A stretch of 64,000 bases of DNA from a virus (IMGVR_UViG_3300023174_000089:1-64000); one strand, 5' to 3'. Counted from the stretch's first letter, positions 31,785 to 60,951 are shown. Made by a program: numbers and translations. Notes: generated by a model from the letters alone, not told the origin.

Positions 31785-39261
<7,477 letters not shown>

Positions 39262-56167: not shown

Positions 56168-56827
56168 TTAATATTTACCACTTTTCTCATAATATGAAAT
56201 GGCGTTGACTAGACCTGTGATGTGGTCCTCGGTCTTTTGTTTGAATACGATTGGATGGTTATTCTCAACGGCCATAATGATTACTAGGTCGTGGATAGGT
56301 TCACCTATCAACTCCTCATACATCAACGCATAGGCGCTTGTTTGCCAAAAATAATCTTCAATATCTTCATGGCTTTTAACTTTTTTGGATGTTTTGAAAT
56401 CAATTACCGAAAGCACACCATCAAATTCGGCAATACAATCTACACGACCTGCCATATTCAATTGTTTTGACCAAAGTGCCTGTTCTTGGTAATGAATGTT
56501 ATTAATACGATTCAGGTGTGGTTTAATTGATAAGAACATTTCATGTGCATCAGGCATCACATTACCCAAATCTTCATTATTCAAATATCGTTCACATAGT
56601 GTATGAACATTTGTACCACGAGAAGTTGCTTTCTTGGTAATTGCATTAGCAACATCATCACCTACTTTATTACGCCATGCTTGAAAGATGTGTTTCTTTT
56701 GAGCACCAATCACTGTAGTGACTGATGGTAATTTTGTACCATCAGGCAGTTTGTAGAATCGTCTACCATCAGGAAAAGTTTCTGATTGTAAATCTTGTAA
56801 TTGTTTTGGTGGGCAGTAATTAAACAT
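56168..56827 (-). CDS. PD-(D/E)xK exonuclease of T4-like phages
   Basis: R.Y..PDG...PSVTTV, RGT.VH...E.YL, AGRVDCIAE.DG.L.VIDFKTS, YF.Q..AYA.M. Confidence 0.85.
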   Translation of the reverse strand: MFNYCPPKQLQDLQSETFPDGRRFYKLPDGTKLPSVTTVIGAQKKHIFQAWRNKVGDDVANAITKKATSRGTNVHTLCERYLNNEDLGNVMPDAHEMFLSIKPHLNRINNIHYQEQALWSKQLNMAGRVDCIAEFDGVLSVIDFKTSKKVKSHEDIEDYFWQTSAYALMYEELIGEPIHDLVIIMAVENNHPIVFKQKTEDHITGLVNAISYYEKSGKY

Positions 56828-57599
56828 TTTTTTTCGTCAAAAACTTTTCTTTTAATCTATCAAATAATGCTATATCTTCTGGTGTAAGAGTAACAGCATC
56901 TACATTTTTTCTATATTCTTTTGCTTGATTCTCAACTTGAAAGATATTCCCATAATATTTGAAATTTTTGGTGATTTGCCTTGTGTCATAGGCATCCATA
57001 ATTATATGATAACGATCTTCATCTGAATCATTTCTAATTTGGTGCCACAAATTCACCCACAGAATATAAACTGAACCATCAGCTGGCATATGTAGATTTT
57101 CACCTTGGCAGATATGCACACATTTCTTATTTGTAATTAATGGAATATGAATTCTTGCCATATAGTTATTTGTGTCTGAATCTTTATGAACCAAAGATTT
57201 TGAATGTGCCTGTAAACAAGATACCCTTGCTCGTCTAGGATAAAACCCTAATGATTCCAAATCATCCAACACTTCTTTAATATAACCAACACATCCTGCT
57301 GTTGGATTTTTATGTTCAAATCCTTCTGCGACATTCATATATTTCATGGCTTTATAATTATATTGGCCATTTGGAAAAAATACATCATTTGTTTCTTTAT
57401 CATCAGAATGATAAACTTCCCAACCATCTCGCCAATCACCAGTTCTAGACAATAATGTCCAACCACCAAAGCCATGGTATTCTAGTGTTTCAAATTCTTC
57501 ACCTTGAATCTGTTGTTTACCAAGAGTGAATACATTATTCTCAACCTCTTTTCTCAATCGGTCGATATCAACTTTATAATCCAACTTTTCATACCACAT
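56820..57599 (-). CDS. 2OG-Fe(II) oxygenase, Asp/Asn beta-hydroxylase-like (likely start MWYEK at 57599)
   Basis: R.R...L.......HKD...RIHIPLITN...HMPADG.VY......HQ.RN.S..DRYHI: HxD...H triad and 2OG-binding Arg. Confidence 0.75.
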   Translation of the reverse strand: MWYEKLDYKVDIDRLRKEVENNVFTLGKQQIQGEEFETLEYHGFGGWTLLSRTGDWRDGWEVYHSDDKETNDVFFPNGQYNYKAMKYMNVAEGFEHKNPTAGCVGYIKEVLDDLESLGFYPRRARVSCLQAHSKSLVHKDSDTNNYMARIHIPLITNKKCVHICQGENLHMPADGSVYILWVNLWHQIRNDSDEDRYHIIMDAYDTRQITKNFKYYGNIFQVENQAKEYRKNVDAVTLTPEDIALFDRLKEKFLTKKNV

Positions 57600-58162
57600 T
57601 ATAAGTTTCCTGTTTCTTTTAAAATTTGACACACATCTTGATAATAATACTGTGTACCTAGAGTAATGGCAAGCCTTTCACTCAAAACATTATTTGGTTT
57701 TACTGCGTGTGGTCGTGTTACATCAAGTAACCACACTTCATTATCTTTTGCGATGAATGATTCTGTTTTTTCCAAATCGTCCTCTTGGTAGATAAATCCA
57801 TTGGTTTGATTATCTATCTGATAGGTATTTGGTTGTTCATCTTTAAACTTATAAAACTGTGTTAAGCAATTTTCAGTTTTTATATAGAAGTTAATTGTTG
57901 AATTTATACCACTATCGGTGTGAGGAGGTATTGAATGGTTCACTTTCATTAAAGACATGAAGAAGTCTTTACGACATCTTTCCGGCAAAACAGAATATAT
58001 TTGTGGATGTAATAATGAATTCAAGTTTAAATATTGTATGCCTTTAAATTGGCCATCAATATTTACACCGTAAGATATTTGAACATCAAGTGGTTCATAA
58101 CCAGGAACAATGAAATTGTTTTTTAATTTAACAAAACTACTTCTTTGATTTCCATTCTTCAT
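57599..58162 (-). CDS. 2OG-Fe(II) oxygenase-like protein
   Basis: IPPHTDS....INFY...WLLDV..PHAV......R.AITL: HxD...H...R. Confidence 0.65.
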   Translation of the reverse strand: MKNGNQRSSFVKLKNNFIVPGYEPLDVQISYGVNIDGQFKGIQYLNLNSLLHPQIYSVLPERCRKDFFMSLMKVNHSIPPHTDSGINSTINFYIKTENCLTQFYKFKDEQPNTYQIDNQTNGFIYQEDDLEKTESFIAKDNEVWLLDVTRPHAVKPNNVLSERLAITLGTQYYYQDVCQILKETGNL

Positions 58163-58499
58163 ATTGTTTCACGATTTGACATTCATAATCCCAATTAATA
58201 CCTTCATGTGGATTATCCTTAGCGGCTTGCCAAGGTTTACCCAAAATATGTTCGAGAATAGGAATGCCAGGATGTAATATTTTTTCTAATACATCAGCAT
58301 AATCAGTAAACATTTGAAACAACCGCTCTTTATCGGGTTGTTGTAGATTTAAAATGTCGCTGTTCAATTGAGTATCGAAATATTTTACGATATGTTTACG
58401 ATATAACTCAATTTCTTCTTCTGTAACAATACCATCACGGTTGATGTCGGCGTCTGCTACACCATCGTTATTTAAATCAATATCTTTAATATCAGACAT
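58137..58499 (-). CDS. EF-hand-like Ca2+-binding protein
   Basis: DLNNDG and DINRDGIVTEEE (DxNxDG...E) loops. Confidence 0.55.
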   Translation of the reverse strand: MSDIKDIDLNNDGVADADINRDGIVTEEEIELYRKHIVKYFDTQLNSDILNLQQPDKERLFQMFTDYADVLEKILHPGIPILEHILGKPWQAAKDNPHEGINWDYECQIVKQYEEWKSKK

Positions 58500-59475
58500 T
58501 TTCTAATTTCCCCTGAAACAGTTTTTCTTTAAATTCTATTAATTTACTTAGATATAGAGCTGTGTAATAAGTAAAAAATACAAGAGCCCAAATTGTGTAT
58601 ACGGCCAAGACTTGTTGTTTTCTATTTGATTTTGGTTTTGGTGGTATATAACTGACCACTCTACAGATAACTGTACCAATTTTCATAATGATACGACCCA
58701 TGGTGTTATCTTGTTTCAAAACACCCATCTTATAAGCCATATGTTCAGACCAAGGTGTTCCAATCTTAACAGCCATTTCAGTTGCAACAATCTTTTGTTC
58801 AATTTTACGGCGTGATTCTTTTTTGATCCAGAACATAAAATCTGGACCTTTAGCATTCATCCATGATGTAACGATACGAGCCCAACGGATATAACCACGA
58901 TAAACCCTCTTATCTGTTTTACGTAACATCTGGCCATATGCCTGATCAGCTGCCCATATTGTAGAACTCATTAGGCCTTTATCATACAAATCAGCACAAA
59001 CGATCTTAGAACAGTTACATGCACAGTTACAATTAAATGTTGCTGAAGCTGCGGCGCCACAATTGTAGCCTACAGTTGCATTACAGTTACAATTATATCC
59101 AGAAGAACAGTTACAATTGGCTTGAAGATACGATTGTGTATCACAGTTTGTGCAATTTATACCAGAACAATTTGTGCACTGAGATTCAAAGGCACCAAAA
59201 GGTAAACACTGCTGACATTGAATGTTTCCACAGTTACAGTTACAGTTTGTGCAATTTGTAGGAGGACAATTGGTATTTGAACAGTTACCATTATCACAGT
59301 TTCCGTCCATATTTCTCTGATAGTATGCTTTATCTTTAAAAGCATCCATGTTTGGACTGGCTGGAGGATTCTTTAAATAACCATTTAAAAACTGCAAAGA
59401 TGCAGAATATGTTGCACCTAAACCTAGTTCGGTCGTTACATCAGATGTCGATATTTGGCCACTTGGTGTTGTCAT
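58492..59475 (-). CDS. Asn-Cys-repeat protein; putative substrate of the adjacent radical SAM enzyme and oxygenases
   Basis: 22 Cys in residues 60-155, 18 of them as Asn-Cys. Virion-type N-terminus (PSGQIS.SDV..ELG), KIVC...GY..WA domain and a C-terminal hydrophobic helix. Confidence 0.7.
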   Translation of the reverse strand: MTTPSGQISTSDVTTELGLGATYSASLQFLNGYLKNPPASPNMDAFKDKAYYQRNMDGNCDNGNCSNTNCPPTNCTNCNCNCGNIQCQQCLPFGAFESQCTNCSGINCTNCDTQSYLQANCNCSSGYNCNCNATVGYNCGAAASATFNCNCACNCSKIVCADLYDKGLMSSTIWAADQAYGQMLRKTDKRVYRGYIRWARIVTSWMNAKGPDFMFWIKKESRRKIEQKIVATEMAVKIGTPWSEHMAYKMGVLKQDNTMGRIIMKIGTVICRVVSYIPPKPKSNRKQQVLAVYTIWALVFFTYYTALYLSKLIEFKEKLFQGKLENV

Positions 59476-59502
59476 TTTACTGTCCGTTACAATTTATTGT
59501 AG

Positions 59503-59510
59503 TATTTATG
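59503..59510 (-). promoter_or_regulatory. Late promoter-like motif (CATAAATA) upstream of the Cys-rich gene
   Basis: ATAAATA ~28 nt before the ATG, the same spacing as before structural genes. It overlaps the rSAM stop codon, so a chance match is possible. Confidence 0.45.
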
Positions 59511-60951
59511 TTGTTTCCAACCGTGATTTTCCATATACTTCAATACCTTCTACCTGACCTATTTTTTCACTTACGACCTTGATGGGTATAACCTTTTTCT
59601 TTGGTTCCTCTTTGTGTTCATAGATTGTACCAAAAATATCTTGGCGTTCTAGGGGTAGACCTTCCGCCTTAATTAAAGTTGGAATGTAACCACCAGTAAT
59701 TTTCTCAATGGCCAAGGCAAACAATGGTACATTATCTGAATATGAGTTTGCACAAGATATATCCCAAAACTTTTCATCTAGGAACATACAAGCACCTTTA
59801 CATAGGTGTAAAACTGGACAACCGCTACATTCTTTACGATTACTCCAATGTGTAGAACTTTTGATTCGAACATTATCAAAATCATCTAGTGTTCCACTAT
59901 GGTGACTTTCACCATTTTTACCCATTTCTAAAGAACTTACGTTTTGACAGGTCATAACATTACCACGCAGGTCAACAGCAAGGGTGTGTTCATCATCCAT
60001 GCCACACTTTTGACCTAAGAATTTAGAATTTGTGTGTGTTAATACTGAACCAATAAACCCATCGATTTTGGCCAACTGGCCAAAGAATCCTATTTTACCT
60101 TGTGTGGTGAATATATCAGCAAATGCTGTTCTACGATATTCAAAGTGTTCTTGTTTTGTTTGTAATGAATTAACGATACCATCTTCATCATAAGCGTCAA
60201 CAATACCACCTTCACCCAATACAACATTTGGATCACCGGTTAGTTTAACAAACCATTCATAAATTTCTTTACGTGATTTGTTTTTCGAATTCATCATTGG
60301 GTTGAAACTAAATGATTTACCCAATCTACTCATCATACGGTGAAATCCAAGAATTCTTTTCTTGGCTTCTGGATCATCAAATGGATCTGGCCCACGAACT
60401 GATTGTCCTGGTCCATCATGTGATATTGATACGGAGAAATCCATCATCATCAACCAATCAATGATATCATCAGTTAGAATTGACCCGTTGGTAATGATAG
60501 AGAATTGTGGTTTTCTTTTCCAATCAGAAAACTTTTCTGCAATAGTTTCGGCCAAAGGTTTTAATGTTTTCCAATATACAAGTGGTTCACCACCCCAAAA
60601 CTCAACTCTTAAGCCAGACTGTTCATCAAATTCTAGTTTGTTAAATTTTTCCATAAAAGAATCGATATCTTTTTTGGATGTTTCTGGCATTCTTTCAACA
60701 AATTTCTGTGAACAATAATCGCAGGAGTAGTTACAACTCAAACCTAATTGAATTTTAATATGTTTAACTAATCTAGATTTTTTGAGTGGATTATTCTTGT
60801 CGAATGGGACATAAGGTTTTAAACCATGTGGTTGAATATTATTGTATTGTAATATGTTTCCATTTTCATCAGACAATATGTTGGTCATATTATCATAATA
60901 AAAAATCCTCTTATCGTCTTTTGACTTCTCGGTGTGTATTTCAAATAACAT
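59506..60951 (-). CDS. Radical SAM enzyme with SPASM domain (peptide/protein maturase class)
   Basis: CNYSCDYC (CxxxCxxC), FWGGEPL, ITNG, SISHDG; SPASM C...G....C...CxxC-x5-C-x3-C...C. Confidence 0.92.
   Translation of the reverse strand: MLFEIHTEKSKDDKRIFYYDNMTNILSDENGNILQYNNIQPHGLKPYVPFDKNNPLKKSRLVKHIKIQLGLSCNYSCDYCSQKFVERMPETSKKDIDSFMEKFNKLEFDEQSGLRVEFWGGEPLVYWKTLKPLAETIAEKFSDWKRKPQFSIITNGSILTDDIIDWLMMMDFSVSISHDGPGQSVRGPDPFDDPEAKKRILGFHRMMSRLGKSFSFNPMMNSKNKSRKEIYEWFVKLTGDPNVVLGEGGIVDAYDEDGIVNSLQTKQEHFEYRRTAFADIFTTQGKIGFFGQLAKIDGFIGSVLTHTNSKFLGQKCGMDDEHTLAVDLRGNVMTCQNVSSLEMGKNGESHHSGTLDDFDNVRIKSSTHWSNRKECSGCPVLHLCKGACMFLDEKFWDISCANSYSDNVPLFALAIEKITGGYIPTLIKAEGLPLERQDIFGTIYEHKEEPKKKVIPIKVVSEKIGQVEGIEVYGKSRLETT

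Follow-up and report, generated by a model that had tools for sequence, protein, structure and literature searches.

Ranthionine cross-links placed on whole proteins by SPASM-type enzymes of the radical S-adenosylmethionine (rSAM) class are experimentally established for CrpC/CrpA of Methanococcus voltae (Dieter et al., 2026) and for QhpD/QhpC (PMC13692751), and the enzyme NxxcB links Cys to the beta-carbon of Asn and accepts Ala, Gln and Asp as well (PMC9389541). Here we describe a block of five genes on a 64,000-nucleotide stretch of viral DNA (IMGVR_UViG_3300023174_000089:1-64000, hereafter the window), in which an rSAM enzyme is encoded beside a protein rich in Asn-Cys (NC) dipeptides. The window comes from the 114.9-kb contig of a freshwater T4-like phage. 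On balance, we favour the reading that the block encodes a phage protein-maturation system in which the SPASM rSAM acts on the NC domain, that the modified product is associated with the tail fibre, and that the modification is most likely a thioether. Our search of the literature found no paper describing such an rSAM/fibre system, or such a reaction, in phages.

The five open reading frames (ORFs) are, in agreement with a preliminary description of this DNA, tightly packed at 56820-60951 of the window, and all lie on the minus strand. Gene content in relatives divides the block, as far as sequence can tell, into three parts: a core of the NC domain and the rSAM enzyme, a C-terminal module (C-module) of the NC protein together with a small protein, and accessory 2-oxoglutarate (2OG) oxygenases. 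The features of the two core genes are as follows.

59506..60951, minus strand: rSAM/SPASM enzyme, 481 aa (PF04055, phrog_1802, TIGR04085)
58492-59475, minus strand: NC-rich protein, 327 aa, with 24 Cys and 18 NC dipeptides
59311..59475, minus strand: N-terminal conserved domain of the NC protein, about aa 1-55, the proposed docking/recognition part
58996..59310, minus strand: Asn/Cys-rich domain of the NC protein, aa 56-160, ending in FNCNCACNC, the proposed rSAM substrate
58495..58995, minus strand: C-terminal helical module of the NC protein, aa 161-327, starting SKIVC-ADL, with a hydrophobic helix at about aa 289-313

We evaluated the coupling of the two core genes in two sets of relatives, consisting of 80 IMG/VR loci with an rSAM homolog at 61-80% identity and 80 loci from bacterial genomes with an rSAM at 36-78% identity. 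An NC protein was present at 77 of the 80 viral loci, and the three exceptions were contig-end cases. The bacterial loci were evaluated by a strand-controlled search for ([NDQA]C)>=3 runs, with at least 3.5 kb of upstream flank as the flank requirement. Such a run was found on the rSAM strand at 61 of the 80 bacterial loci and on the opposite strand at none of the 80; where the required flank was available, 50 of 51 bacterial or prophage loci had a run on the rSAM strand. These runs were 0.8-3.1 kb upstream of the rSAM gene and were nearly always 0-4 residues from the C-terminus of a 190-620-aa ORF. In an exhaustive profile search, the N-terminal and NC parts of the protein were also found as stand-alone proteins of about 125-135 aa or fused to a Hint domain, and every stand-alone NC ORF (127-160 aa) with enough flank had an rSAM homolog (54-66% identity) within 1.6 kb downstream. 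The stand-alone loci had neither the small protein, nor the 187-aa protein, nor the gene resembling Asp/Asn beta-hydroxylase (AspH-like) that complete the block in the window. Among all relatives with enough flank, only one locus, L183, had an rSAM without an (N/D)-C-repeat neighbor. The preliminary description had considered that homologs of the rSAM might routinely occur without a Cys-rich neighbor, and this is clearly not the case at either the viral or the bacterial and prophage loci. The distribution strongly supports a conserved functional pair of rSAM and Asn-Cys-rich protein, with an enzyme-substrate link between them.

The bacterial loci came mostly from freshwater Burkholderiales (e.g. 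Limnohabitans and Polynucleobacter) and were in prophage-like contexts with tail and lysis genes. The rSAM homologs at 40-59% identity (L159-L238) were likewise concentrated in freshwater Burkholderiales, namely Limnohabitans, Polynucleobacter, Rhodoferax and Polaromonas, a hint as to which hosts this group of phages may infect. A near-identical copy of the whole block recurs in independent freshwater metagenomes from lakes and rivers, collected in several studies, and a megablast search of the block against the phage collection gave no match. One metatranscriptome run (X20) was considered as evidence of transcription and set aside, as its seven contigs, each about 150 nt long and at a depth of 2-5, could be DNA carry-over; the NC gene accounted for three of them and the rSAM gene for two.

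The Cys residues of the NC protein are highly concentrated. Twenty-two of the 24 are inside residues 60-155, and the counts of the preliminary description (22 Cys in 96 residues, 18 of them as Asn-Cys) were reproduced exactly; the Asn/Cys-rich domain as delimited here (aa 56-160) has 23 Cys and all 18 NC pairs. Shuffling the residues of the 327-aa protein gave 4.8 +/- 1.7 NC pairs (maximum 13 in 20,000 shuffles), and the DNA of the region has no tandem repeat and only one 18-bp micro-repeat, from which we conclude that the NC pattern is selected at the protein level. Across 87 distinct homologous NC domains, the residue directly before Cys (position -1) was N in 75%, A in 12%, Q in 7% and D in 4% of cases, and Asn occupied position -3 in only 35%. 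Going by these alignments, the Cys grammar is N-C and not primarily NxxC, which corrects the earlier reading with its NxxC contexts. The earlier statement that the substrate is a protein rather than a leader-core peptide holds well, given partners of 127-340 aa or fibre tails of 190-620 aa. The N-terminal domain is conserved in 24-90 homologs, stand-alone NC proteins included, and we propose from this conservation that it may serve in docking or recognition. The NC protein had no match in Pfam, PHROG or NCBIfam.

The partner gene is, by its motifs and domain matches, a complete SPASM radical-SAM enzyme, which is how it was first described. It scored above the cut-off both with PF04055 (1.5e-8; 35.5 bits, cut-off 29.5) and with TIGR04085, the SPASM model (33.9 bits, cut-off 27), and it matched phrog_1802 at 2e-64. 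The CX3CX2C motif is formed by C73/C77/C80, and seven SPASM Cys (C316, C335, C375, C378, C384, C388 and C400) follow the pattern CX9-15GX4C ... CX2CX5CX3C ... C. All ten of these Cys were invariant in 17 relatives, down to 55% identity. A count of seven SPASM Cys instead of eight fits an open auxiliary-cluster site such as the one in the CteB structure. The best NCBIfam similarities were all to peptide or protein maturases (PapB, geopeptide, QhpD, CcpM, SCIFF, CefB and TIGR04463), and the closest solved enzymes were 8vpo (the best PDB match by sequence), CteB (the second-best) and the anaerobic sulfatase-maturating enzyme (anSME).

These observations can be combined into a mechanism for the core pair. 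The SPASM rSAM would act on the Asn-Cys-repeat domain of the 327-aa protein and join the sulfur of Cys to a carbon of a neighboring residue, plausibly the preceding or a nearby Asn. The resulting thioether cross-links, of the ranthionine or sactionine type, would harden a small Cys-rich domain in the reducing cytoplasm. We rate thioether cross-linking of the NC domain as the most likely chemistry by analogy, because SPASM enzymes beside Cys-rich substrates make thioethers, because the acceptors accepted by NxxcB (N, A, Q and D) are the same residues that stand at position -1 here, and because CrpC/CrpA and QhpD/QhpC set precedents on whole proteins.

Of the rival readings, the leading one keeps the substrate but changes the reaction; next comes a metal-binding role of the repeats, and last a product that is not part of the virion. 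The same enzyme and substrate might convert Cys to formylglycine (as anSME does), join adjacent Asn and Cys residues in a ring (the thiomorpholine counterpart of the TqqB morpholine), or carry out epimerisation or C-C coupling. Sequence similarity leaves the chemistry of the rSAM unfixed because its best match, 8vpo, is an RS-SPASM enzyme acting on peptides made by the ribosome and modified after translation (RiPPs) that comes from a cyclopropyl-synthase study. The anSME structure 4k37 aligns with the rSAM across the whole core and SPASM domain (4.7e-6), and the rSAM homolog of Achromobacter phage JWF is annotated as anSME; yet the anSME substrate motif, C/S-x-P/A-x-R (for Cys-type substrates, C-x-(P/A)-x-R), does not occur in the NC protein sequence and the rSAM has seven auxiliary Cys, not eight. 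The strict adjacency of N and C would suit a reaction between adjacent residues such as the Thr-Gln ether of TqqB (PMC9389541), but the Cys-rich substrates of SPASM enzymes have so far given thioethers (PMC13692751, PMC9389541). We therefore regard some other chemistry as unlikely, although it is the alternative that we take most seriously.

Alternatively, the Asn-Cys repeats could be mainly structural, binding metal or forming disulfides in a trimeric fibre tip in the manner of the His-x-His iron sites of T4 gp37 or of Cys-laddered beta-helices, and the rSAM, instead of cross-linking them, could have some other fibre-related role. Alternating x-C-x-C runs at the extreme C-termini of presumably trimeric fibres would fit such a structure, as would a Cys number that varies from 11 to 29 per domain in the 87-domain set, and the composition of N, C, T, A, G and S is like that of small Cys-rich beta-solenoids. 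Against this, the near-obligate and strand-specific coupling to the rSAM, which persists over 36-80% identity and in several phage types, is hard to explain without an enzyme-substrate relation. Phages also assemble in a reducing cytoplasm, and odd Cys counts are common among the domains. A mainly structural role of the repeats is thus improbable, more so than a change of chemistry.

The preferred reading, a maturation system for a fibre-associated protein, draws on the genomic context of the relatives. This connection to tail fibres was missed by the preliminary description and is the main biological context of the system. In two cultured phages, RSP15 of Ralstonia and JWF of Achromobacter, the rSAM gene is located among tail-fibre genes. 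The JWF protein gp028, labelled in its record as resembling T4 gp36 and having a Hint domain, shows NCNCDCNCNCSC immediately ahead of the Hint cysteine, and ORF048 of RSP15, annotated as 'side tail fiber', has the C-terminus NTNCQCGN. In all ten distinct loci that are not of the T4 type, a tail-fibre gene of the Peptidase_S74 type has its end at -4 to +10 nt relative to the NC-gene start, and one of these ten S74 fibres also has a Gp34 trimerisation domain. In prophage-type loci, tail proteins are followed, in this order, by an NCNC-tailed fibre, a conserved protein (about 270 aa), small 2OG oxygenases (one or two, Oxy_5 or Oxy_3), the rSAM and lysis genes. A run of the type NCNC(A/N/D)C(N/D)C closes 44 of 44 distinct prophage fibre tails, just as it closes the NC domain; the narrower form [YFW]NC[NDA]C was found in 17 of the 44 fibre tails and in 59 of 78 NC-domain ends. 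In pelagimyophages, rSAM cassettes have been reported inside the 'host recognition cluster' (PMC7029224). Together, these arrangements suggest that the NC domain belongs to the tail-fibre apparatus, either as its distal tip or as a protein docked to the tip. Hundreds of other phages and prophages have the pairing within a tail-fibre gene or at its end, and these viruses probably modify the part of the fibre that binds the host.

The conserved protein of about 270 aa has no assigned family and has a C-terminus like 'GFK(Y/W)FSG...' (L185:4483-5340, L171:3128-3955 and L001:4314-5129, the last being RSP15 ORF047). At prophage-type loci its gene is invariably placed after that of the NC-tailed fibre and ahead of those for the oxygenase and the rSAM. 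Perhaps it helps to assemble the fibre, or it is another component of the system.

The window also has a promoter-like element at the junction of the two core genes.

59503..59510, minus strand: CATAAATA, a T4-late-promoter-like motif that overlaps the rSAM stop codon, with its ATAAATA core beginning 34 nt upstream of the ATG of the NC gene

The block does not contain the T4 late promoter in its exact form, TATAAATA, and only the looser test for ATAAATA was informative. Of 54 distinct upstream regions, 28 have this core 34-40 nt upstream of the NC gene, where the background is 1.4% per 80 nt; the core was also found ahead of the rSAM gene in 14 of 54 and never ahead of the downstream genes. 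In the T4-like lineage, the NC protein would then be transcribed from a late-type promoter.

In the window phage, the NC domain is fused to a helical, presumably membrane-anchoring C-module that has a small partner of its own and is perhaps removable. The C-module (about 165 aa) is well conserved and was modeled by AlphaFold2 (AF2) as all helical, with a terminal hydrophobic helix and a predicted local distance difference test (pLDDT) score of 80-93. We found no Pfam match and, with Foldseek, no PDB fold match for the module, and a BFVD structure search with the 327-aa model returned only uncharacterised phage proteins. The module caps phage proteins of 150-1859 aa, including DUF4815, Gly-rich and immunoglobulin-like proteins, usually after poly-Gly and a Cys, and those C-module proteins that have no NC domain are located in fibre modules. 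Further, unrelated proteins capped by the module are encoded at L239:5564-7480, L242:6761-7507 and L241:6989-8077. In some NC proteins the C-module is replaced by a Hint domain and in others it is absent, and NC runs are otherwise found at the very C-terminus of their proteins; for these reasons we suspect that the module is a membrane anchor that is removed from the protein or serves only during assembly. The gene for its presumed partner follows directly.

58137-58499, minus strand: small helical protein, 120 aa, with an EF-hand-type loop, DINRDGIVTEEE, at aa 18-29

Members of this small-protein family were present at 69 loci. At two of the loci with capped proteins (L239 and L242), a C-module protein is immediately followed by a member of the family and there is no rSAM or oxygenase nearby, so the small protein appears to pair with the C-module and not with the rSAM. 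Its designation as an EF-hand protein in the preliminary description stands in part. The copy in the window does have a loop of the canonical type, but the protein had no match in Pfam (including EF-hand), PHROG or NCBIfam, its PDB profile matches were at chance level, and the N-terminal segment with the loop was missing or different in most of the 16 relatives compared.

The last two genes of the block encode the oxygenases.

57599..58162, minus strand: 187-aa double-stranded beta-helix protein, putative Fe(II)/2OG oxygenase, with H81-x-D83...H152 (pLDDT 93.6)
56820..57632, minus strand: Asp/Asn beta-hydroxylase-like 2OG oxygenase (270-aa ORF), PF05118, with H138, D140 and H186

Both had been called oxygenases on first description, and both calls hold on separate evidence. 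The AspH-like ORF matched PF05118 (3.3e-10, 40.5 bits against a cut-off of 22.6) and, by profile, the beta-hydroxylase 7v4f at 1.9e-7, and H138, D140 and H186 were invariant in its family. Its true start is probably the ATG at 57599, which would give a protein of 259 aa and overlaps the stop codon of the upstream gene. The 187-aa protein belonged to no Pfam, PHROG or NCBIfam family, its PDB profile search gave chance-level matches only, and hhalign found no similarity between its family and the AspH-like family. ESM Atlas searches with the proteins of the block returned only clusters of viral hypothetical proteins and leads at 0.89 (for the 187-aa protein, leads at 0.89 only). The AF2 model of the 187-aa protein has a double-stranded beta-helix, and its best structural matches (Foldseek, VIA) were all Fe(II)/2OG oxygenases, namely YcfD (Z 10.2), proline 3-hydroxylase, ALKBH6, SnoN and PHD2, over a Z range of 10.2-8.6. 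P80, H81, D83 and H152 were invariant in the family alignment. We therefore newly assign the 187-aa protein, on its modeled fold and active-site motif, as a putative Fe(II)/2OG oxygenase.

Relatives swap these enzymes for others or add to them, including Oxy_5 oxygenases, a B12-binding rSAM, desaturase-like proteins, a Trp-halogenase-family enzyme and a methyltransferase. Oxy_5 oxygenases were found in 68 related loci and in no part of the window phage's contig. A B12-binding radical-SAM gene (504 aa) is inserted in the block at L015:12824-14338 and at 21 other loci, and one or two fatty-acid-desaturase-like membrane di-iron proteins are inserted at L005:8446-9884. In one T4-like variant (L110:6379-12340), the flanks of a stand-alone NC protein and rSAM hold three 2OG-FeII_Oxy_5 genes together with a flavoenzyme of the Trp-halogenase family (6e-93) and an SAM methyltransferase. 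Judged by gene content, both oxygenases are accessory and interchangeable with other tailoring enzymes; they would probably hydroxylate side chains of the same NC protein. The self-contained five-gene pathway of the preliminary description is consequently not indivisible, as the minimal loci consist of the NC protein and rSAM only, the oxygenases are accessory and the small protein goes with the C-module.

The block is surrounded in the window phage by genes for a gp59 helicase loader, a PD-(D/E)XK exonuclease and a DenV-like protein, and in the T4-like lineage it lies outside the fibre module, between the denV-like and exonuclease genes. An ORF-free gap just downstream of the block (55540-55924, minus strand) holds a permuted, two-piece transfer-messenger RNA gene with the tag ANDNKFALAA*, as called by ARAGORN. 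The fibre genes of the same phage (S74, DUF4815 and collagen-like) are at 7-39 kb. Between 32000 and 40000 the window has 44-50% GC in an otherwise 35% GC genome. Two giant fibre-like ORFs fall in the same place (31785-35201 and 35203-38946), and collagen-like G-x-x repeats open the second.

Several of our results weigh against a fibre-associated thioether system, and we list them together here. The block is in a replication-gene region about 20 kb away from the fibre genes, so virion association in the window phage is drawn from homology. The rSAM was far under every curated (equivalog) cut-off for a maturase, whether for PapB NF047865 (its best NCBIfam similarity; 1.4e-21, 77 bits against 340), SCIFF TIGR03974 (54 bits against 425), QhpD TIGR03906 (1.6e-19, 69.9 bits against 453), CrpC TIGR04463 (2.7e-13, 49.5 bits against 525) or anSME TIGR03942 (49.2 bits against 349). 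At the proximity positions of CteB (F/F/T/S/H/Q), the rSAM has S81, W119, T154, S177, Q336 and N337, and only two of the six are identical; as a set they resemble CteB more closely than anSME (F, Q, T, S, D, F), which is not decisive. The question raised in the preliminary description, whether the rSAM N-terminus holds a RiPP recognition element (RRE), can be answered in the negative for the canonical type, as only about 60 residues precede the core, which is too short, and there was no PqqD-type Pfam match. The N-terminal and NC parts of the 327-aa protein had a pLDDT below 50 in the AF2 model, so the substrate domain has no assigned fold. Finally, AspH-like genes are reported to be core genes of pelagimyophages, including ones without an rSAM (PMC7029224), and for that reason the target of the AspH-like enzyme may be something else.

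The distance from the fibre genes, amid genes of DNA metabolism, is also one of three observations that would fit a genuine viral cassette, RiPP-like or for host takeover, with a product outside the virion (for example a Cys-rich factor, anchored in the membrane or released, that targets the host or competitors), the others being the C-terminal membrane helix of the NC protein and the likeness of the variable tailoring enzymes (halogenase, methyltransferase, B12-rSAM) to biosynthetic clusters, but we consider this very unlikely, as NC domains of homologs either show translational coupling to S74 fibre genes or are themselves fibre C-termini, the C-module caps structural-type proteins inside fibre modules, the block has no protease or exporter gene, and a late-type promoter precedes the NC gene.

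A maturation system for fibre-associated NC domains remains our preferred reading, and it can be extended, tentatively, to a wider proposal. Many phage lineages may remodel the receptor-binding tips of their fibres with a private rSAM that turns NC runs into thioether staples, possibly across three chains, or into thiomorpholine-type rings; the T4-like freshwater phages would add a removable membrane-anchoring C-module, its partner protein and hydroxylases. Fibre tips decide host range and the robustness of the particle. If the proposal is true, virions would be modified after translation in a way that is not known from any virus, and RiPP-type thioether chemistry would no longer be confined to small peptides and two cellular proteins but would include virus particles. 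Sequence alone would then not suffice to predict the fibre structure and receptor binding of these phages, and heterologous fibres or engineered phages lacking the enzyme could prove inactive. Enzymology and protein stapling would also gain hundreds of natural enzyme-substrate pairs built on a simple (N/D)-C repeat. Cultured carriers exist in Ralstonia phage RSP15 and Achromobacter phage JWF.

Among known systems, the position and layout of the NC proteins recall the gp38 adhesin of T2/T6-type phages and Tfa-type tip proteins, which sit on the tip of the fibre. Shared features are a gene placed directly behind that of the fibre and a small product whose N-terminal part is conserved and whose distal part varies and is of low complexity. 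These tip proteins are not known to be modified by an enzyme, and the likeness lies in gene position and layout; no relation in sequence or fold was found, and no test was aimed at one. Among the enzymes, anSME is similar in its full-length alignment, SPASM domain included, and in acting on a protein and not a peptide, but it differs in its substrate motif and in having eight auxiliary Cys where the rSAM has seven. PapB/PapA, CteB/CteA (SCIFF) and NxxcB/NxxcA are unlike the present pair in that they use RRE-bound leader-core substrates of 40-60 aa, and NxxcA additionally has its Asn acceptor at -3, whereas N at -1 dominates here and Asn at -3 does not. The maturation of the quinohemoprotein amine dehydrogenase gamma-subunit by QhpD/QhpC comes closer, as it places several intra-protein thioethers from Cys to Asp/Glu in a small structural protein. 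There, however, the QhpC leader is bound by an RRE, the product is a periplasmic enzyme subunit, and only three cross-links are made. CrpC/CrpA is an archaeal, cellular system that has no fibre context, C-terminal module or oxygenases; CrpC uses N-terminal domains or an RRE, and the modified motifs are ones such as CAGM and CPLV rather than N-C. What the two systems share, as a functional analogy only, is a SPASM rSAM (with three [4Fe-4S] clusters in CrpC) that is encoded beside its Cys-rich protein substrate.

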